From Ignavibacteriota bacterium (lineage in GTDB: Bacteria > Bacteroidota > Ignavibacteria > UBA10030 > CAVZMI01): DNA of 64,000 nucleotides. The stretch lies in NCBI GenBank assembly GCA_963776275.1, contig CAVZMI010000023.1, forward strand, positions 256,001 to 320,000, in the 5' to 3' direction. The position numbers and the translations under genes are program-made. Below the pieces are notes generated by a model, which did no database searches, was not told the origin of the DNA, and was given only the letters and a program-made list of their open reading frames with translations. Below, piece after piece: positions 3,511 to 19,593 of this stretch (positions are counted from its first letter, which is position 1; every line of letters starts with the position of its first letter).

Positions 3511-6009
3511 ATGAAGGAAATCAAACGAACATATCCCATTGACAGTGTCTTACCGGGGTTATTGAAGGTGTTTCAACGAACGAACAATGTCGTTCTTTCT
3601 GCGCCGCCGGGTGCCGGGAAAACCACCCGGGTTCCCGTTGCACTTCTTGCCTCTGAATGGATGGAAGAAAAAAAGCTTGTGATGCTTGAACCGCGTCGTC
3701 TCGCTGCGCGCCGTGCGGCAGAATTTATGGCGGCTCAGCTTGGCGAATCGGTCGGCCAGACCGTGGGGTATCGAATTCGTGGTGAGACGGTCATCAGCAC
3801 GAACACGCGTATCGAAGTGGTGACGGAAGGAATCCTCACCAGAATGCTTCAACATGACTCTGCACTGCCGAACGTTGCGCTGGTAATCTTCGACGAATTT
3901 CACGAGCGCAGCATTCACGCTGATCTCGGACTTGCACTTACAATAGATGTGCAGGAACACTTGCGTAATGATTTGCATATTCTTGTTATGTCTGCCACAC
4001 TCGATGGTATAACGGTTGCACGTCTGCTCGGTAGTACACAAATAATTGAAAGCAAAGGAGAGAGTTTTCCGGTTGTTACGCAGTACGCGCGTTTCACTTC
4101 GGACAAACCGATTGAAGTCCGTGTCGCTGAGACTGTTGTACGGGCACTTGATAAACAGGAAGGCGATGTGCTGGTATTTCTTCCAGGACGTCGCGAGATT
4201 CGCCGGATGGAAAATCTTCTTTGGGAAAAACGGTTGGCGGAAGAAGTGCTTGTTCATTCTCTCTATGGAGATGCATCGTATCAACAACAAGCAGCGGCAT
4301 TGTCTCCGGCTTGCTCCGGGAAACGCAAGGTAATTCTCTCTACCAGCATTGCGGAAACCAGTCTGACAATTGACGGTGTACGCACGGTCATCGATTCCGG
4401 ATTAGCACGCACTGCCCGTTTTGATGTACGGCGAGGGATGTCGGGCCTGGTGACGATACCCGTTTCAAAAGCTGTTGCCGATCAACGACGCGGACGTGCC
4501 GGACGCCAGCAACCGGGTGTGTGCTATCGTCTTTGGACTGAAGCGGAACACGAAATGCTTCCCGATTATCCTCAGCCGGAAATTAAAACTGCCGATCTTG
4601 CGCCGTTTGCACTGGATCTCGCGCAATGGGGAGCGCCAACCGGTGAAGGATTACGGTTCCTCGATCCGCCGCCTGCTGCGCATCTTTCACAGGCACAGAT
4701 GCTTCTTGCGGATATCGGTGGAGTGGATTCTCTGGGCAAAATCACTACCCATGGACGTGCCATGGCAGAGTTACCTCTCCATCCGCGACTATCGCATATG
4801 GTTTTACGTGGTAGAGAATTGGATCTCGGTAAAATTGCCTGTGACATCGCTGCACTCCTCGAAGAGCGCGACCTCTTTGCGGGAAAAGAAGATACCGACG
4901 TTGACCTTGCATCCCGTTTGCATATGCTGTATGAGACACAAACTGTGGACGAAGGAATTCGTGAACGCATACTATCTCAGTCAAAGAGATTAAGGCGGCT
5001 TGCCGGTATTCATAGTGAATCGAAGGGGAGAGAAGAACACGCACAGGGAATTCTTCTTGCTCTTGTCTACCCTGAGAGGATTGCCCGGCGGCGTGAAAAT
5101 AAAGGCCTCTGTTTTCAAATGGCAAACGGAATGACAGCCGTACTGCCTCGTGGAAGTCTTCTCGCGCGGGAAGAGTTTCTTGCTGTTGGTGAAGTTGACG
5201 GGCTTGGCGCTGAAGTTCGGATTTATCTCGCCGCACCGGTTGCCAAAGAAGACCTGCGGCAGGTTTTTAAAGATACTATAATCGAGGAAGATGATATCCA
5301 CTGGAGTCCTGATGACGAAGCGGTGATCGCGCGGCATGTTCTACGTCATGGCGCGGTTGTTATATCAGCACAGCACATCAGGCCGCAAGGAGAGAAAGTG
5401 ATCTCGGAAATGGTCGACGGAGTAAGAGAGATGGGCTTAGATTGTCTTCCATGGAGTAAGGATTCGCGCTCAATTCAAGAAAGAAGCGAGTGGCTTCGGA
5501 ATTATATTGCGCGCAACGATTGGCCTGATCTCAGCAATGCCACCCTTTTAGAAACGATCGGAGCATGGCTCGCACCGTTTCTCAATAACGTTTGGCGTCG
5601 CGATCAACTTCATAAGATATCTATGGTTGAAATTCTTCGCTCCCGGTTCACGCATAAACAATGGCAGGAACTCGAACGATCCGCACCCTCACATCTCAAA
5701 CTGCCGAGCGGTTCCCGCGTTGCAATCGATTATGCCTCCGGTGAACAGCCCGTTCTCGCCGTGAAGCTGCAGGAATTATTCGGACAGACAGAGACGCCGC
5801 GCATTGTCAATGGTCAGGTTGGAATTGTTTTACATTTGCTCTCCCCGGCATCCCGTCCGCTTGCCGTTACACAAGATCTCCGACGTTTCTGGCAGACGGT
5901 GTATCCGGAGATTCGCGTACAAATGCGCTCCCGCTATCCCAAGCACTTCTGGCCTGACGATCCAATGACTGCAAGACCGACGAACAAACCGGTGAAGCGG
6001 AAAAAATAA
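3511..6009 (+). CDS. hrpB: ATP-dependent helicase HrpB
   Basis: APPGAGKTT, DEFHER, MSAT, STSIAETSLTIDG, QRRGRAGR, RYPKHFWPDDP. Confidence 0.95.
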   Translation: MKEIKRTYPIDSVLPGLLKVFQRTNNVVLSAPPGAGKTTRVPVALLASEWMEEKKLVMLEPRRLAARRAAEFMAAQLGESVGQTVGYRIRGETVISTNTRIEVVTEGILTRMLQHDSALPNVALVIFDEFHERSIHADLGLALTIDVQEHLRNDLHILVMSATLDGITVARLLGSTQIIESKGESFPVVTQYARFTSDKPIEVRVAETVVRALDKQEGDVLVFLPGRREIRRMENLLWEKRLAEEVLVHSLYGDASYQQQAAALSPACSGKRKVILSTSIAETSLTIDGVRTVIDSGLARTARFDVRRGMSGLVTIPVSKAVADQRRGRAGRQQPGVCYRLWTEAEHEMLPDYPQPEIKTADLAPFALDLAQWGAPTGEGLRFLDPPPAAHLSQAQMLLADIGGVDSLGKITTHGRAMAELPLHPRLSHMVLRGRELDLGKIACDIAALLEERDLFAGKEDTDVDLASRLHMLYETQTVDEGIRERILSQSKRLRRLAGIHSESKGREEHAQGILLALVYPERIARRRENKGLCFQMANGMTAVLPRGSLLAREEFLAVGEVDGLGAEVRIYLAAPVAKEDLRQVFKDTIIEEDDIHWSPDDEAVIARHVLRHGAVVISAQHIRPQGEKVISEMVDGVREMGLDCLPWSKDSRSIQERSEWLRNYIARNDWPDLSNATLLETIGAWLAPFLNNVWRRDQLHKISMVEILRSRFTHKQWQELERSAPSHLKLPSGSRVAIDYASGEQPVLAVKLQELFGQTETPRIVNGQVGIVLHLLSPASRPLAVTQDLRRFWQTVYPEIRVQMRSRYPKHFWPDDPMTARPTNKPVKRKK

Positions 6010-6043
6010 TAATCGATCCATCCGAAGATATGTTCGTTGCACA

Positions 6044-6723
6044 TTATCGTTGACGGGAAGCGATCGAACCGATAGGTTTTCGAATACCGTATGGTTCTCT
6101 TAGCGCTATAAGCTTTTGCACCTGTTCATCATTCAAGGTGGTTACTTTTCCAAGGTTCCGTGCTATAAATATGATATGGGCATAATGCTCAAGTATCTCC
6201 ATTTTGTAATATGCACTGAAAACGTCGGAACCAACAGTTAAAGCTCCATGGTTAGCAAGGAGGAAGGCATCGTATTCCTGTAAGAGGGGGAGAAGTGGTT
6301 TATAGAACTCTTCCGTTCCCGTCGTGCCGTACGGAACCAAAGGAATTGTCCCGAGTGTGATAATGACTTCCGGAAGAACGTACTGATCGAGCGGAATGCC
6401 GGCTACTGCAAAACCCGTTGCGTACGGTGGATGGGCATGACAGATACTGTTAACGTCTGGTCTTTCTTTATAAACGTGAAGATGCATAAAGATTTCCGAT
6501 GATGGTTTCTTCTTGCCATTGACAACCTTGCCGTTCATATCGACGGTAATCAGGTCGCTTGGCTTCATAAAACCCTTGCTAACGCCTGTCGGCGTAATAA
6601 GAATGTGTTTCCGGTCAGCCGTGCACTGATATTTCCATCGTTCGATGCAACATATCCGCGCATGTACGTTCTCCTGCCCACCTCAAGAATATCTTTTTTT
6701 AAAGACATCGGATTTTGTTTCAT
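6044..6723 (-). CDS. Class II aldolase/adducin family protein, frameshifted near 6617
   Basis: Upstream frame RGYVASNDGNISAR joins ILITPTG...PSSE...HAHPPYAT...LLANHG. Confidence 0.85.
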
Positions 6724-6870: not shown

Positions 6871-6912
6871 CAACCTTAACTTTAACCTTTACCTTTACCT
6901 TAACCTTTACCT
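6871..6912. repeat. Degenerate hexamer tandem repeat (AACCTT/TACCTT)
   Basis: caaccttaactttaacctttacctttaccttaacctttacct just downstream of the metY stop. Confidence 0.75.
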
Positions 6913-6918
6913 CTCTCC

Positions 6919-8343
<1,425 letters not shown>

Positions 8344-8347
8344 TTAT

Positions 8348-8386
8348 AAAAAAACCTCTTCCGGAAGAAACGGGAAGAGGTTTTTT
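8348..8386 (-). terminator. Intrinsic terminator of the SAM riboswitch expression platform
   Basis: CCTCTTCC-N10-GGAAGAGG-T7 on the minus strand. Confidence 0.85.
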
Positions 8387-8398
8387 AGGATATTCCTC

Positions 8399-8616
8399 TT
8401 CTCTCATCTTCCCTCGGCTTTGATAGTTTAAATCAAAGTCTTAGCAGGAGTTAGCACCTGGACGTCTCGGGCTTTTATCGGATGAGTGCCCCTCGATCCC
8501 TCCGTCCCGACTTTCAATCAGAACGGGGTCGGATTCGGGACAATCCCTCGTGGAGCTCGGGATCGGTTGCTAAGGTGTCATCGGGCCTGTTCCCTCGACC
8601 TTTCTTGATAAGAGAA
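8399..8616 (-). promoter_or_regulatory. SAM-I (S-box) riboswitch with enlarged P3
   Basis: Minus strand CTCTTATCAAGAAAGGTCGAGGGAACAGGCCCGATGACACCTTAGCAACC...AGGTGCTAACTCCTGC...GAAGATGAGAG, upstream of metY. Confidence 0.93.
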
Positions 8617-8653
8617 TTGCTGTCTTACGTTACTGTGCTTCTATCACAAAAAT

Positions 8654-8685
8654 AAAAAAGCCCTTCGAGTATTCTCATGAAGGGC
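8654..8685 (-). terminator. Attenuator terminator downstream of the leader peptide
   Basis: GCCCTTC-ATGAG-AATA-CTC-GAAGGGC-TTTTTT. Confidence 0.85.
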
Positions 8686-8712
8686 CTTGTAATATATAAA
8701 ATTCCTAAACGG

Positions 8713-8784
8713 TCAAAACCCTCCGTATGAACAACCCATGTCCATGGTCATATCCATTGCGATATTTTGCCGGAGTATTTTCAT
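8713..8784 (-). CDS. Putative Met-sensing leader peptide, 23 aa (MKILRQNIAMDMTMDMGCSYGGF)
   Basis: Hand translation; four internal ATG codons within seven codons; lies between a promoter and a terminator. Confidence 0.75.
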   Translation of the reverse strand: MKILRQNIAMDMTMDMGCSYGGF

Positions 8785-8791
8785 TATATTA

Positions 8792-8820
8792 AATATACAA
8801 TATCGACATACATTTGTCAA
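8792..8820 (-). promoter_or_regulatory. Sigma70-type promoter of the metY leader
   Basis: TTGACA-N17-TATATT, 7 nt before the leader ATG. Confidence 0.8.
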
Positions 8821-8828
8821 GAAAAATT

Positions 8829-11351
8829 TTAAAATTCTATTGTAACTCCACCAACGGGGAAGAATGAATACTGATACACATTTTCCGTTGTGCCGTCGCT
8901 TCGATAGCCGATCGCCAGTACATTCCCCCGGTTATAGAGATTCTGAATAAGTATGAATACTTCGATATTCCATCCGCTCAAATGATATCGACTGATCCAC
9001 TGGAAGTCGAGCCGGTGATAATCGGGATATCGTGCCGAATTGATTTGATCGCCGTCGATCCAGGCTCCCCTGAACCATAACGCGCCTCCGATGCGATACT
9101 GCCTGTCCGTCACGAATACTTTCGGTGTGTACGGACGCCCGGTTTGGTAATGGAATCTGAAGCTGATTTCCATATCGTCGGAAAGAGGGAGAATCATTGT
9201 TGGATATTTAATGAAGAACGGCATATCGTCCAGTGCCGTACGGGTTCCCTTGATGATCTTCCCCATGATGAGCGTGAAGAGATGCGGGTAGTCGTATGTG
9301 AACGGATACCAATCGACCTGCTGTGGGATTCGCGGATCTTGTTCCATTGTTTTCGAATAAGTATAACTGAGCGTGCCGTAATAATCATTGACCTGCTTCT
9401 GCTGGATAAATAGTTCGATCCCGTATGATTTCCGTTTCCCTATGTTGAGGATTTTATCCGACCGAAACGTGTTATCGGCGTCGTAATAAATAAATGACTC
9501 TTCAACAGGGAGTCTATCATAATTTTTGTAATACCCTTCGAGACTCAGTCTTAAGCCTTCATCGAGAATATGCTCGAATCCAATTATATAATGTCGTGAA
9601 TGACTGTTGTCAAGGTTTCGATTATATCCCAGGTTGCGATTGTCTGAATAGAGTGGAAGTGATTGTGTCTGATAGTAATCGCCGTATGCCAGGTTGATTC
9701 GCGTCGTCATCGGTATTAACTCGTACGATAGACTGACCCGTGGACTGAAATTTCCCTTTTCAGAGTAACTAAAATAGTCGTATCGACCGCCAAGAGTCAG
9801 CGTGAATGATGAGTAAATATGAATTTTATCGCTCACATATGCGTACCATTTAGAGTGATCGCCGAATCCATAATTGGTTTCCACGGACCCGGCAGGGAAA
9901 GTTATCGGTCCGGATTCGAATTTACCGTCATGGTTAAGATCGTATCTCATGGTATCAGGAATCCAGTTCACAAGATCATTGAACTTAAATGTGGTCAGAT
10001 ATTGCGCCCCAGCTGAAATTTCATGGGCGGGATGTGGTTGATAGAAAATTTCATACTTCACACCTGTTGCCACTTCAATGGCGTTCATTCTGAACGTTTC
10101 GCGTGAATTTAATATCCGATACTGTGCCACTTCGCCGGATGGGTCAAAGGTTCGGATTACATAATCGTCATTTGTGTTCACGAGATACTGATTCCCAATG
10201 CCGGAAACTGTCAGGACGGAATATCCCTTTGTTCCCCAGAGCCTCTTAAGCGAGAGGCCGAGTGCATACTGCTTGCTGGCAAAATCGAATGATTCGATGG
10301 CTGATGAGTCGGTTTTTCCCGCTTTGGTTACGTCTGATTCTGTCGGTTTCCCTTTCTCTCCGATTTTATCGTCGCCATAAATACCGCTGAAGATAAGCTG
10401 CTGCGAACTGGAGAGATCGTAAACGGCTTTTGCCTGAGCGTCCCAGTACCGCGGGATAGCCGTCAACCCGATCGATGAGATTCCAACAACGTCGTCAAGC
10501 GCTTCGAGAAAACTCTTTCGCGCCGACAGGATCCAGGAGCCTTTACCACCATTGATCCCGCCTTCCATCACGGTACCGAAACCGGCCATATTGAATCCCG
10601 TATTCGAGGCGAACGATCTGTTCCGGTCGCCTTCACGCATTGTGACATTCATGACCGACGACATTTTATCGCCGTAGTTTGCCGGAAATCCGCCGCTTGA
10701 AAACTGGATGTCCTGTATAAGATCGACGTTGACCATGTTGATCGGTCCGCCGGAATTGAACTGGTTCGGATAGTGGTTGGTGGAAGGAATCTCGATGTAA
10801 TCCATGATCGTGAGATTCTCGTTCGGCGATCCGCCGCGGACAATCAGCTCGTTCTGCTGGTCGTTCGAGTTTGCTATACCGGGCAGGTTAGCCACGATGC
10901 GCTGCATATCCTGAATTGATCCGGGAGATCGTTTTACTTCAGCGCCGTCGAGGCCGATCGTGCTTATGGGACTGATCGCACCGGCTCTTCCGAAATAGTC
11001 AGCCTGGACGTTCACACCGGCAAGTGTGAGTGCGTCCTCTTCGAGTTTTATGCTTACTTTGGCACTTCGACCTGTCGAAACGACCACATTCGTAATAACA
11101 GCTGGTTTATAGCCGATCAGTGATATTTTAAGGCTGTATTCTCCGACTTCAATGTTCTTGATGTTGAAATGGCCGCTTGTGTCCGTTGCAGCTCCGAAAG
11201 ATGGTTTTTCAATGACAATAACGTTTACGCCTGAAAGCGGTTCTAGCGTATTACCATCGTGTACCTGACCCGAGATTTCACCCCTTCTTTCCTGAGCGAA
11301 TATTGATGAAAAAAGACATAGTAAGAGAATAAAAAGTTGTAAGTATCGCAT
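8829..11351 (-). CDS. TonB-dependent outer membrane receptor
   Basis: Signal peptide, carboxypeptidase-reg-like N-domain, plug motif LIVRGGSPNEN...GGFPANYG, terminal Phe. Confidence 0.9.
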   Translation of the reverse strand: MRYLQLFILLLCLFSSIFAQERRGEISGQVHDGNTLEPLSGVNVIVIEKPSFGAATDTSGHFNIKNIEVGEYSLKISLIGYKPAVITNVVVSTGRSAKVSIKLEEDALTLAGVNVQADYFGRAGAISPISTIGLDGAEVKRSPGSIQDMQRIVANLPGIANSNDQQNELIVRGGSPNENLTIMDYIEIPSTNHYPNQFNSGGPINMVNVDLIQDIQFSSGGFPANYGDKMSSVMNVTMREGDRNRSFASNTGFNMAGFGTVMEGGINGGKGSWILSARKSFLEALDDVVGISSIGLTAIPRYWDAQAKAVYDLSSSQQLIFSGIYGDDKIGEKGKPTESDVTKAGKTDSSAIESFDFASKQYALGLSLKRLWGTKGYSVLTVSGIGNQYLVNTNDDYVIRTFDPSGEVAQYRILNSRETFRMNAIEVATGVKYEIFYQPHPAHEISAGAQYLTTFKFNDLVNWIPDTMRYDLNHDGKFESGPITFPAGSVETNYGFGDHSKWYAYVSDKIHIYSSFTLTLGGRYDYFSYSEKGNFSPRVSLSYELIPMTTRINLAYGDYYQTQSLPLYSDNRNLGYNRNLDNSHSRHYIIGFEHILDEGLRLSLEGYYKNYDRLPVEESFIYYDADNTFRSDKILNIGKRKSYGIELFIQQKQVNDYYGTLSYTYSKTMEQDPRIPQQVDWYPFTYDYPHLFTLIMGKIIKGTRTALDDMPFFIKYPTMILPLSDDMEISFRFHYQTGRPYTPKVFVTDRQYRIGGALWFRGAWIDGDQINSARYPDYHRLDFQWISRYHLSGWNIEVFILIQNLYNRGNVLAIGYRSDGTTENVYQYSFFPVGGVTIEF

Positions 11352-18566: not shown

Positions 18567-18615
18567 TTGACAGCCGCAGAATATTTATGTATATTTATTT
18601 CGATAAATGTCGAAA
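18567..18615 (+). promoter_or_regulatory. Promoter with an adjacent palindromic operator (likely ArsR autorepression)
   Basis: TTGACA-N17-TATATT followed by TTTCGA-N6-TCGAAA. Confidence 0.7.
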
Positions 18616-18633
18616 CATAATGGATAAAAATTT

Positions 18634-19593
18634 ATGGATTTCAAAGAGCGGATTAGTATTTTAAAAGCCCTTTCCGACGGTACCCGGTTAATGCTGGTGA
18701 ATGCATTACTTGAAAAGCCGCATTGTGTGGAGGATCTAGCCCAACGGCTGCGACGGGCGCCATCGACCATTTCTTTCCACCTGCGGAAACTGGAAGAAGC
18801 CGGACTAGTATCCAAAACAAAAACGCAATACTATTTGATGTATGAGTTGCGATTGGATCTTCTCCAGATGAATCTCAGGGATTTTATTGCCATTCCGGTA
18901 GATGGAGAGAGTCCGGAACAAAAGCGCATGCAGCGATACCGGGAAAAAGTTGCGCGCACTTTTATCCGGAATCAGGCGCTGATCAAAATTCCAAAACAAT
19001 GGAAAAAACGGAGGATTATCCTCGAAGAATTCCTGAAAAAGTTTGAATCCGATAAGGAATATCGGGAAAATGAAGTCAATGAGAGAATCATGACCCTGTA
19101 TCCGGACTACTGCACAATCCGACGGATGTTAATTGATGAGGGATACATGAGCCGGCAGGGACAAATATACAGAGTTGAAAAAAAGGAAGAGGTAAAGGAA
19201 AAGATGAAGGAGAAAATAATGTCAAAACGCGCAGATATAAAAAGGGAATACAAACAAATCCCGCGGCAAGCCGGGATTTATCAAATCAAGAATACTGTCA
19301 ATGGAAAGGTGTTTCTTGGCAGCAGCACAAACCTCCACGGTCCGTTAAATAGAGATAAATTTATGCTTTCGACCGGAATGCATAAAAATGAACAGCTCCA
19401 GAAAGATTGGAAGGAATTCGGTCCCGACGCATTTTCATTCGATATTCTCGAGATTGTTCAACAAAAAGACGATCCAAATTTTTCACTTGAAGATGAGTTG
19501 ACACTTCTAGAACAAATCTGGATTGAAAAGCTTCAACCTTTTGGAGAGCATGGGTATAATAAGATAGCAAAAATCCGTGAGGCATATATGTAA
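18634..19593 (+). CDS. ArsR HTH + DUF2087 + GIY-YIG-like protein; possibly two genes, the second starting at 19219
   Basis: KALSDGTR..TISFHLRKL; YRENEVNE..DYCTIRRMLID; AGIYQIKN..GKVFLGSS. Confidence 0.85.
   Translation: MDFKERISILKALSDGTRLMLVNALLEKPHCVEDLAQRLRRAPSTISFHLRKLEEAGLVSKTKTQYYLMYELRLDLLQMNLRDFIAIPVDGESPEQKRMQRYREKVARTFIRNQALIKIPKQWKKRRIILEEFLKKFESDKEYRENEVNERIMTLYPDYCTIRRMLIDEGYMSRQGQIYRVEKKEEVKEKMKEKIMSKRADIKREYKQIPRQAGIYQIKNTVNGKVFLGSSTNLHGPLNRDKFMLSTGMHKNEQLQKDWKEFGPDAFSFDILEIVQQKDDPNFSLEDELTLLEQIWIEKLQPFGEHGYNKIAKIREAYM

Follow-up and report, generated by a model that had tools for sequence, protein, structure and literature searches.

In the DNA analysed here (a stretch of 64,000 nt, referred to as the window), the leader of metY raises the question of what a short, methionine-rich open reading frame with a terminator could do in front of a riboswitch that has a terminator of its own. 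Read on the minus strand, the window sequence gives the order promoter, upstream ORF (uORF), terminator 1, SAM-I aptamer, terminator 2 and metY, the leader elements being short, about 470 nt in all. Judged from sequence and folding models, the leader probably places a Met-sensing leader-peptide attenuator in series with the SAM-I riboswitch, which would set two termination gates before metY.

A SAM-I (S-box, RF00162) aptamer is predicted at positions 8614-8401 on the minus strand, with 60.5 bits against a gathering score of 44.4 (E = 1.5e-11) and a match to model positions 1-108 of 108. The match contains insertions of 98 nt in P3 and 31 nt in P4, and the fold comprises P1 to P4 with an extended P3. 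Intrinsic terminator 2 (8386-8348, minus strand; CCTCTTCC...GGAAGAGG followed by T7 at 8354-8348) forms the predicted expression platform, and its hairpin (8386-8349) is present in both the minimum-energy and the centroid structures. As read from the sequence, a GAAGAGG segment just 3' of P1 could pair with the 5' arm of this terminator. metY (8232-6919, minus strand) encodes an O-acetylhomoserine/O-acetylserine sulfhydrylase of 437 aa (PF01053, 459 bits; TIGR01326, 680 bits, cutoff 495), and a GAGGGA Shine-Dalgarno sequence precedes its ATG at 8232. An earlier reading made from the letters alone (the sequence-only reading) had proposed a full SAM-I aptamer with its own terminator, then metY; the covariance-model score, the hairpin with its T7 and the TIGR01326 match bear this out.

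Further upstream, a sigma-70-like promoter is found at 8820-8792 on the minus strand, with TTGACA at 8820-8815, a 17-nt spacer and TATATT at 8797-8792; in the motif scan it matched the consensus at 11 of 12 positions. The -10 element ends 7 nt (TAATATA) before the ATG of the uORF at 8784, as had been noted before. Transcription presumably starts at or just before this ATG, and the metY leader mRNA is possibly leaderless. The promoter is kept in the relative L001, where differences are confined to the spacer and the stretch after the -10 element. Sites with at least 11 of 12 matches number 3 in the window against 1.65 expected (20 simulations), so the promoter alone is not beyond chance, and a looser scan gave 3 sites against 2.6 expected. 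By eye, the leaders of two other relatives, L002 and L003, have no comparable -35/-10 pair; both keep only a conserved GATTTGAAAT block, which stops 7 nt short of the ATG.

The uORF (8784-8713, minus strand) consists of 23 codons plus TGA, encodes the peptide MKILRQNIAMDMTMDMGCSYGGF and lacks a Shine-Dalgarno sequence. ATG codons occupy positions 10, 12, 14 and 16 (8757-8737) and a Cys codon position 18 (8733-8731), matching the 23-codon frame with four Met in seven positions plus a Cys of the sequence-only reading. Four Met within 7 codons amount to an enrichment in the codon of the pathway end product. A cluster of at least 4 ATG per 8 in-frame codons occurs only here in the 64 kb, both strands and all frames considered. 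The internal ATG triplets of the window uORF are in frame (4 in-frame, 0 out-of-frame), and over seven leader ORFs the counts are 31 and 2. Across 74 loci (1.2 Mb, both strands counted), 16 clusters of at least 4 ATG per 8 codons were found, of which 6 are on the same strand as metY and no more than ~540 nt ahead of it; by our own arithmetic, ~0.4 would be expected there. A minus-strand ATG cluster at locus L010 was taken as a chance occurrence, being antisense to a coding region. Two loci, L004 and L008, carry ORFs with three Met/Cys codons in eight and no clear terminator. No Pfam or NCBIfam family was found for any of nine leader peptides at E up to 10. The uORF is presumably translated, and ribosomes would stall on it.

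Behind the uORF lies intrinsic terminator 1 (8689-8648, minus strand). Its arms, AAGGCCCTTC (8688-8679) and GAAGGGCTTT (8666-8657), pair in folding to a hairpin of -16.3 kcal/mol, followed by a T-run of T6-A-T5 to 8648; this is the GCCCTTC...GAAGGGC-T6 structure pointed out earlier. A simple terminator scan with a loop limit of 8 listed neither minus-strand terminator, because both loops, as read from the sequence, exceed 8, and the terminators were judged by folding instead. The 5' arm of a predicted antiterminator, GGAGGGTTTTG (8724-8714, minus strand), coincides with the end of the uORF, namely parts of its final three sense codons and the stop. In folding it pairs with CAAGGCCCTTC (8689-8679), which is also the terminator 5' arm, and the helix lengthens through TCAT/ATGA if those bases are unpaired. 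The folding program thus returned the same antiterminator that had been proposed from the pairing of the ORF 3' end with the terminator 5' arm.

The antiterminator was tested by folding with ribosome masks at successive A-site codons. The full window antiterminator (-13.6 kcal/mol) formed with the ribosome at codons 9-16 and, more generally, at every codon as far as Met16. Moving the A site past Met16 erodes it: the energy weakens to -10.8 kcal/mol at codon 17, -4.9 at Cys18 and -2.1 or weaker from codon 19, reaching 0 at the stop codon. Only 2 of 300 shuffles equalled the window antiterminator, and for the leader itself the fold beat 199 of 200 shuffles (z = -3.37). The antiterminator 5' arm has another partner, the 5' part of the ORF, when the full-length leader is folded to minimum energy. 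A ribosome-free transcript truncated before the terminator 3' arm folds into the antiterminator too; default termination without translation therefore rests on this ORF-5'/ORF-3' pairing, which was seen in the full-length minimum-energy fold only.

These structures suggest how the two gates could operate. Gate 1 would be a ribosome-mediated attenuator: from the presumed start site at or just before 8784, a transcript would be made on which a ribosome translates the 23-codon ORF and meets Met at codons 10, 12, 14 and 16. If charged elongator Met-tRNA is scarce, the ribosome would stall within codons 10-16, GGAGGGUUUUG (8724-8714) would be free to pair with CAAGGCCCUUC (8689-8679), and RNA polymerase would read through. 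If Met-tRNA is plentiful, the ribosome would reach the last codons or the stop and cover the GGAGGGUUUUG segment, so that the GGCCCUUC/GAAGGGCU hairpin with its U-run would form and the transcript would end near 8654-8648. Gate 2, 30 nt on, would be an ordinary SAM-I riboswitch, in which bound SAM leads to termination at 8354-8348. Since the metY mRNA would be complete only if both gates are read through, expression would need low Met-tRNA charging and low SAM, an AND logic that the two serial terminators suggest.

The architecture uORF-terminator-SAM-I-metY was compared in four sequences, the window, L001, L002 and L003. A Met-rich uORF, the terminator and SAM-I stand upstream of metY in all three relatives, whose MetY is 98% (L001) or 74% (L002, L003) identical to that of the window; the terminator arms GCCCTTC and GAAGGGC are identical throughout. 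The leader peptides are MKTLQQNIAMMDMTMDMGCSYGGF in L001, MKQEIKNIAAKFMMQMCMIRCHSLGRR in L002 and MKKEIKNITAKFLMNMYMMCYYSYGLR in L003. Between the window and L001, the ORF differs by 3 synonymous and 2 non-synonymous changes and one in-frame insertion that adds an extra ATG; between two Rubrivirga loci, L011 and L016, it differs by 5 synonymous and 4 non-synonymous changes. In both comparisons the pattern of change is coding-like.

The predicted switch is likewise shared. When the ribosome occupies the last Met, the antiterminator energy is -13.6 kcal/mol in the window, -14.0 in L001, -16.3 in L002 and -14.2 in L003, and -37.5, -29.8 and -25.6 kcal/mol in the leaders of L011, L016 and L012. 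With the ribosome at the stop codon it drops to between 0 and -2.4 kcal/mol, the same switch in all seven sequences by folding. Shuffled sequences did as well, out of 300, in 2 cases for the window, 0 for L001, 24 for L002, 6 for L003, 0 for L011, 1 for L016 and 3 for L012; the L002 antiterminator is thus marginally better than its shuffles. The stop codon falls inside the antiterminator 5' half in every leader examined. The two Ignavibacteria-like clades, with two sequences each, build their antiterminators differently, and in a four-sequence MAFFT alignment their ORF starts were not correctly matched. Pair changes were therefore taken from the folds of single sequences: in the window's clade, among few sequences, a single change was found, G.U to A-U, while two antiterminator pairs differ in both partners between L011 and L016 (C-G to U-A and G-C to A-U), each time synonymously in the ORF. 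The sequence-only reading had asked whether relatives have a conserved Met-rich uORF, whose lack would have refuted it, and a covarying terminator/antiterminator. The uORF and the terminator proved conserved, the covariation in the clade scant; the attenuation itself gains support from the conserved uORF together with a predicted antiterminator that forms at the Met codons and not at the stop in all four sequences.

Conservation also bears on a simpler account, in which the ORF is accidental, the hairpin is the terminator of the receptor gene upstream, and SAM-I-metY has its own overlapping or downstream promoter. The receptor gene (11351-8829) does stop 9 nt before TTGACA and has no other terminator, the promoter match upstream of the uORF is not significant alone, and a weak TTGTGA-N16-TAAGAC can be made out by eye at 8649-8622, which the promoter scan did not list. 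However, L002 and L003 keep the ORF and the terminator before SAM-I and metY behind unrelated genes: across the compared leaders, the unit follows a gene for a TonB-type receptor, one for a chorismate mutase/PDT/DAHP-synthase fusion or a divergently read one for a multiheme cytochrome. The divergent gene is that of L003, where no co-directional gene upstream could own the terminator. The hairpin was accordingly rejected as the terminator of an upstream gene. Against an ORF by chance stand the uniqueness of the Met cluster in the window, the length and frame kept among relatives, and the in-frame ATG gained in L001. An own promoter is made less likely by the distance from the first T-run to aptamer P1, which at 23-30 nt in all four sequences is too short to fit a separate canonical promoter after the hairpin; by eye, no conserved -35/-10 pair is present in this gap in the window and its relatives. 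We regard this account as very unlikely.

If the uORF is indeed translated and controls terminator 1, the signal could still be something other than Met-tRNA charging, namely translation speed or coupling, or arrest by the nascent peptide. Arrest would fit the conservation of an N-terminal K/Q-N-I-A/T-A and a C-terminal C..S/Y.G in the four Ignavibacteria-like peptides. Moreover, Cys codons accompany the Met codons in 7/7 ORFs, and since the metY family includes O-acetylserine sulfhydrylase activity, a broader sulfur status could be what is sensed. Yet what all lineages have in common, even those with the unalignable peptides of Rubrivirga and L012, is one feature, an in-frame run of Met just before the antiterminator. 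In ribosome-free folds of L002 and L003, the N-I-A/T-A codons pair with the ORF 3' end (GCCGC/GCGGC and ACCGC/GCGGU), so the conservation of this stretch is partly explained at the RNA level. A window ribosome stalled at Cys18 would leave only the remnant of -4.9 kcal/mol given above, which makes Cys a weak co-signal in the window. A signal other than Met-tRNA charging is therefore unlikely, albeit the most serious competitor of Met sensing.

Independent analogues of the uORF-terminator element occur in other combinations. The Rubrivirga loci L011 and L016 have a Met/Cys-rich 23-codon uORF with a terminator and no SAM-I, and in L012 the uORF and its terminator stand between metY and an upstream SAM-I that has a terminator of its own. 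The Rubrivirga and L012 peptides are not alignable with the window peptide; because of this, these elements could be convergent with that of the window. We lean slightly towards the view that an undescribed class of Met/Cys-codon attenuators with intrinsic terminators governs metY across Bacteroidota/Ignavibacteria/Rhodothermia, as a movable element placed before, after or without SAM-I.

This recurrence matters for one further explanation, that promoter, ORF and terminator are a small gene in their own right, for example for a Met-rich, metal-binding MxM peptide, or a small RNA, with the riboswitch adjacent only incidentally. MxMxM motifs resemble copper-binding Met motifs, and the unit has a promoter-like site and a terminator of its own. 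There is also a precedent in trpL of Sinorhizobium, for which action of the attenuator RNA and leader peptide in trans is reported. But the association with metY recurs across lineages with no metal genes nearby, the peptides share only Met and Cys codons between lineages, and the stop codon is always within the antiterminator 5' half. In L012 the element even sits between the SAM-I terminator and metY. Such an independent gene seems less probable still than an accidental ORF, and the attenuator in series with SAM-I remains the preferred reading.

Known RNA families do not account for the upstream gate. When 8200-8900 was searched permissively against Rfam, the uORF-terminator segment matched none of the known families of leaders, T-boxes or sRNAs; the best scores in 8645-8791, with gathering scores in brackets, were trpB 20.5 (59), PyrG_leader 19.2 (65), L10_leader 18.7 (44) and His_leader 15.2 (49). 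For T-boxes, there was no Rfam match in the window at the gathering score, nor in 8200-8900 at E up to 10. Met T-box leaders of Firmicutes sense Met-tRNA charging and control methionine synthesis by antitermination (PMC7270179). In the window, sensing would instead occur by ribosome stalling and not by direct tRNA binding.

Classical attenuators (trp, his, thr, leu, phe and ilv in Proteobacteria; trp, leu and ilv in Actinobacteria) share with the window leader a short ORF with a run of end-product codons, antiterminator and terminator hairpins that exclude each other, an antiterminator 5' strand that is masked once the ribosome reaches the stop, and an intrinsic terminator with a U-run. This mechanism is summarised in PMC1262725 and PMC2965389, and the leader peptides known to the latter come from Proteobacteria, Actinobacteria and one Firmicutes his case. 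In contrast, the window leader uses Met (plus Cys) codons, which none of the classical families does, lacks a Shine-Dalgarno sequence, is possibly leaderless, is followed by a riboswitch in the same leader and belongs to a Bacteroidota/Ignavibacteria-like host.

The closest counterpart found is from Streptomyces lividans TK24, where a leader peptide called "metL" has been predicted in front of metNIQ (PMC8079986). Like the window uORF, it is a short ORF proposed to act in a Met-dependent manner, carrying Met and Cys codons in its last part (MSTTSDRTPATEATTTPGARCMCRRMCAF), before a methionine gene; it is transcribed leaderless, as the window leader may be. It differs in that it controls a transporter, in that its authors report a typical Rho-independent terminator as missing and termination as unclear, and in that it has no riboswitch attached to it. 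It also comes from another phylum, its peptide is unalignable, and it was annotated from a transcriptome with a predicted function (PMC8079986). Short ORFs rich in a sulfur amino acid likewise attenuate sulfur-metabolism genes in mycobacteria, where polycysteine ORFs are leaderless (bioRxiv 10.1101/834739), and in Actinobacteria, whose Cys leader peptides are described without a conserved intrinsic terminator and with Rho as the suggested factor (PMC1262725). These differ from the window uORF in having Cys rather than Met codons and no riboswitch in series.

Two signals in one leader, SAM and Met-tRNA charging, are also combined by SAM-I(Xcc), the met-operon leader of Xanthomonas campestris (PMC7270179), the rationale given there being that SAM can be high when Met for translation is short. 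Its platform is a direct binding site for uncharged initiator tRNA and controls translation through the Shine-Dalgarno sequence (PMC7270179). In the window, by contrast, a ribosome would read elongator Met codons, and the gates would be separate, serial and both based on transcription termination.

Other leaders resemble that of the window in having two sensors in one 5' leader and two conditions for expression. In Salmonella mgtA, a Mg2+ riboswitch is combined with the Pro-codon uORF mgtL. In M. tuberculosis metE a B12 riboswitch occurs with a uORF (PMC11260477), and tandem riboswitches such as SAM plus AdoCbl are cited in PMC7270179. There, the two sensors are both RNA aptamers, or else the uORF is located inside the riboswitch or overlaps with it and acts via Rho or translation, whereas in the window a complete attenuator with an intrinsic terminator would precede a complete SAM-I with its own terminator. 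A search of open literature turned up neither a Met attenuator that has a terminator nor one stacked on SAM-I, the nearest being Streptomyces metL; this agrees with the sequence-only reading, which knew of no characterised Met attenuator stacked on an S-box.

Control of methionine genes is attributed to SAM riboswitches, T-boxes and the protein regulators MetJ, MetR, SahR and McbR. To our knowledge, no working leader-peptide attenuator has been characterised for methionine, and leader peptides are hardly documented in the phylum group of the window. A Met-codon attenuator, if true, would supply the missing member of a textbook mechanism and carry it into a new phylum group, and the window would hold the first natural complete amino-acid leader-peptide attenuator in series with a complete riboswitch. 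As the module is found on either side of SAM-I and also without it, natural variants would allow the contribution of each gate to be separated. The stacked leader, perhaps on a leaderless mRNA, would compute "Met-tRNA low AND SAM low", which bears on the separate monitoring of Met and SAM raised experimentally for the Xanthomonas SAM-I (PMC7270179). The serial stack would then be a natural two-input gate, through which metY expression would answer both to the Met supply for translation and to the methyl-donor pool.

On the minus strand of the window, 600 nt separate the stop codon of a TonB-dependent-receptor-like gene (11351-8829; CarboxypepD_reg, Plug and barrel domains) from metY and hold all leader elements. 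The putative promoter (11/12 match) consists of TTGACA (8820-8815), a 17-nt spacer and TATATT (8797-8792), which ends 7 nt before the ATG (8784) of a 23-codon upstream ORF (uORF), MKILRQNIAMDMTMDMGCSYGGF, with its TGA at 8715-8713. From this spacing alone comes the idea that the mRNA might be leaderless. The uORF is followed by the first terminator (8688-8648, -16.3 kcal/mol), a hairpin with the arms AAGGCCCTTC/GAAGGGCTTT and then T6-A-T5, and thirty nt further by a SAM-I aptamer (RF00162, 8614-8401) that matched the full model at 60.5 bits (gathering score, 44.4). Insertions of 98 nt in P3 and 31 nt in P4 enlarge this aptamer, the former folding into a long stem extension. Folding placed the second, SAM-I terminator at 8386-8349, followed by T7. 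The metY gene (TIGR01326, 680 bits; PF01053, 459 bits) starts with ATG at 8232, has a GAGGGA Shine-Dalgarno sequence upstream and, immediately 5' of the latter, 2.9 copies of a 9-nt repeat, TATGATTTG (8247-8272). A sequence-only reading had proposed a Met leader-peptide attenuator in tandem with SAM-I; minus-strand sequence, Rfam and folding placed every element it listed where it had been assigned.

When both strands of the 64-kb window were scanned in all frames for at least four ATG per eight in-frame codons, the Met run of the uORF was the single site. Of 200 dinucleotide shuffles, 199 folded less well than the 147-nt leader (z = -3.37). The promoter match by itself was not significant: the window contains three sites at 11/12 or better, and 20 first-order simulations predict 1.65; a looser scan of the window gave three sites against 2.6 expected. 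A second exact TTGACA-N17-TATATT lies at 18567-18595 (+), approximately 40 nt upstream of an ORF (18634-19593), which suggests that this form is used in the organism. A simple terminator scan with a loop limit of 8 listed neither minus-strand terminator because their loops, read from the sequence, exceed that limit.

Scanning genome contigs with MetY yielded 74 loci (L001-L074). The closest were L001 (98% identity, a Bacteroidota MAG) and, at 74%, L002 and L003, the last labelled Ignavibacteria. The conserved Met-rich uORF that the earlier reading had proposed to look for before metY in relatives was present in all three, and the order uORF, terminator, SAM-I, terminator, metY was kept. The leader peptides are MKTLQQNIAMMDMTMDMGCSYGGF (L001), MKQEIKNIAAKFMMQMCMIRCHSLGRR (L002) and MKKEIKNITAKFLMNMYMMCYYSYGLR (L003). 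All four sequences, the window included, have the same first-terminator arms, GCCCTTC and GAAGGGC, and in each of them no more than 23-30 nt lie between the first T-run and aptamer P1. The uORFs of the window and L001 differ by three synonymous and two non-synonymous changes and by an in-frame insertion in L001, a fifth Met codon. Inspection by eye of L002 and L003 found no -35/-10 pair comparable to that of the window; both share a conserved GATTTGAAAT block, likewise ending 7 nt before the ATG. The P3 and P4 insertions are common to the window and L001 and absent in L002 and L003 (aptamers of 134 and 113 nt overall). Upstream of the leader, the window and L001 carry a receptor gene, L002 carries a chorismate mutase/prephenate dehydratase/DAHP-synthase fusion, and L003 has a multiheme cytochrome in divergent orientation. 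Since these genes are unrelated, the leader unit is that of metY rather than of the preceding gene; L003 has no co-directional upstream gene able to own the first terminator.

Downstream of metY, L002 (5523-6668) and L003 (5377-6528) carry a gene for an alpha/beta-hydrolase (about 382 aa). This is probably metX, in which case a metY-metX operon would stand under the double leader. An aldolase gene occupies this place instead in the window and L001. This class II aldolase/adducin-family gene (6044-6723, -) is split in the window into ORFs of 52 aa (6723-6565) and 174 aa (6568-6044) overlapping by 4 nt, and its L001 counterpart is a single 226-aa ORF (5505-6185, +); the split is a frameshift or sequencing error. 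Its best NCBIfam matches (3-oxo-tetronate 4-phosphate decarboxylase, fuculose-phosphate aldolase, MtnB) all fell below cutoff. The spacer to metY contains 6.8 tandem copies of the hexamer AACCTT (6872-6912, + strand).

A scan for Met/Cys-rich uORFs upstream at all 74 loci found further ones directly before metY. Two Rubrivirga loci, L011 (MCSMGMMMCMARPGQERSRPERR, 3827-3955) and L016 (MRCMGMMICMARSGQERSRPERR, 2725-2855), each have a 23-codon uORF, then a GC-rich hairpin and T6, and Rfam detected no SAM-I upstream of metY in either. At L012, SAM-I with its own terminator comes first, followed by the uORF MRCLEMCMMMPNNGLKGGRAMPG and a second terminator. Both strands of the loci (1.2 Mb) contain 16 clusters of at least four ATG in eight codons; six of these lie on the metY strand at most ~540 nt upstream of metY, where by our own arithmetic ~0.4 would be expected. 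Internal ATGs over seven ORFs were in frame in 31 cases and out of frame in 2, and each ORF has one or two Cys codons. Rfam scans covered L001-L034, which include every locus of at least 43% identity, and placed SAM-I upstream of metY in 11/34 (L001, L002, L003, L006, L012, L015, L018, L022, L026, L028, L034). In four of these eleven (L006, L022, L026, L028), no Met-rich uORF passed the threshold of the uORF scan; thus, the uORF is not universal.

Other arrangements were also observed. In the Bacteroidia-type loci L015 (3546-3830), L018 (3625-3850) and L034 (3576-3860), a conserved 45-47-codon ORF ending ...VHMSMRMPGC begins within ~12 nt after SAM-I. The stop codon of this ORF falls in a hairpin that is likewise conserved, GCCTGG-CTGATC...GATCAG-CCGGGC, with no obvious U-run terminator behind it. 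This may be a third way to combine SAM-I with a Met-containing uORF. In L008, from a Lysobacteraceae MAG, metY is preceded by an ORF ...MPMCMCACMCPP... (3780-3860), with no SAM-I by Rfam and no clear U-run terminator; the alternating Met/Cys pattern of this ORF recalls the predicted metL peptide of Streptomyces lividans. L004 has a weaker case, FVMCMCM, upstream of metY. Near the Deinococcus pimensis metY locus (L028), a ZMP/ZTP riboswitch was detected (5595-5678, -; 54.3 bits).

Leaders were folded with ribosome-covered bases unpairable, the mask running through 12 nt past the first A-site codon base, and the transcript was cut before the terminator 3' arm, the moment of decision. A ribosome placed on the last Met codon allowed an antiterminator to sequester the terminator 5' arm in 7/7 sequences (window -13.6, L001 -14.0, L002 -16.3, L003 -14.2, L011 -37.5, L016 -29.8 and L012 -25.6 kcal/mol). 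Once it stood at the stop codon, no stable pairing was left (0 to -2.4 kcal/mol) and the terminator was the sole predicted structure. When the intervening segment was shuffled 300 times per sequence, an antiterminator as good as the real one arose in 2 shuffles for the window, 0 for L001, 6 for L003, 0 for L011, 1 for L016 and 3 for L012; that of L002 barely exceeds its shuffles (24/300). The window antiterminator pairs GGAGGGUUUUG (8724-8714), covering the last three sense codons and stop of the uORF, with CAAGGCCCUUC (8689-8679), precisely the pairing of the sequence-only reading. Stepping the ribosome codon by codon kept the full helix at A-site codons 9-16. Beyond these, -10.8 kcal/mol remained at codon 17 and -4.9 at Cys18; codon 19 and later ones gave -2.1 or weaker, and the stop gave 0. 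The last permissive position is therefore Met16, a limit robust to footprint edges of +9 to +14. At full length, the minimum-energy fold pairs the uORF 3' segment with the uORF 5' part and contains the terminator, as in the 1:2 plus 3:4 conformation of classical attenuators. The truncated window transcript folded into the antiterminator without any ribosome too.

Between L011 and L016, two antiterminator pairs are changed on both sides (C-G to U-A, G-C to A-U), synonymously on the ORF side (CCC GAG to CCT GAA). These compensatory changes support the Rubrivirga antiterminator; covariation in the clade of the window amounts to one G.U to A-U change. The antiterminators of the two Ignavibacteria-like clades are differently built, and the window peptide does not align with those of Rubrivirga and L012, hence the leader class may be convergent.

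Rfam gave no leader or T-box model at threshold, and none of nine leader peptides matched Pfam or NCBIfam; the window element is not a member of a curated family. Riboswitch and uORF are combined at Salmonella mgtA/mgtL. They are likewise combined at M. tuberculosis metE (PMC11260477), and one Xanthomonas SAM-I leader, which binds uncharged initiator tRNA directly, senses both SAM and a methionine tRNA (PMC7270179). A full-text literature search found no characterised Met attenuator. The nearest precedent is the leaderless 'metL' (…CMCRRMCAF) before metNIQ of S. lividans, a transcriptome-based annotation whose authors point to the lack of a typical terminator (PMC8079986). In mycobacteria, leaderless polycysteine uORFs serve as attenuators (bioRxiv 10.1101/834739), PMC1262725 reports Cys leaders and no methionine element for Actinobacteria, and a beta-proteobacterial metXZ RNA element is described without a leader peptide (PMC4239095). 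Apart from a his case in Firmicutes, leader peptides were then known, by the account in PMC2965389, only from Proteobacteria and Actinobacteria.

The window element appears to work like a trp/his-type leader-peptide attenuator, agreeing with that type in its short ORF, Met-codon enrichment, intrinsic terminator and predicted alternative antiterminator. Such attenuation is textbook knowledge; for this amino acid and lineage, for modular use alongside SAM-I and for stacking in series, the literature searched gave no description. As far as sequence analysis reaches, the serial interpretation first proposed is supported, and we consider it fairly likely that a Met-tRNA-sensing leader-peptide attenuator stands in series with a SAM-I riboswitch, such that metY would be on only if both signals are low.
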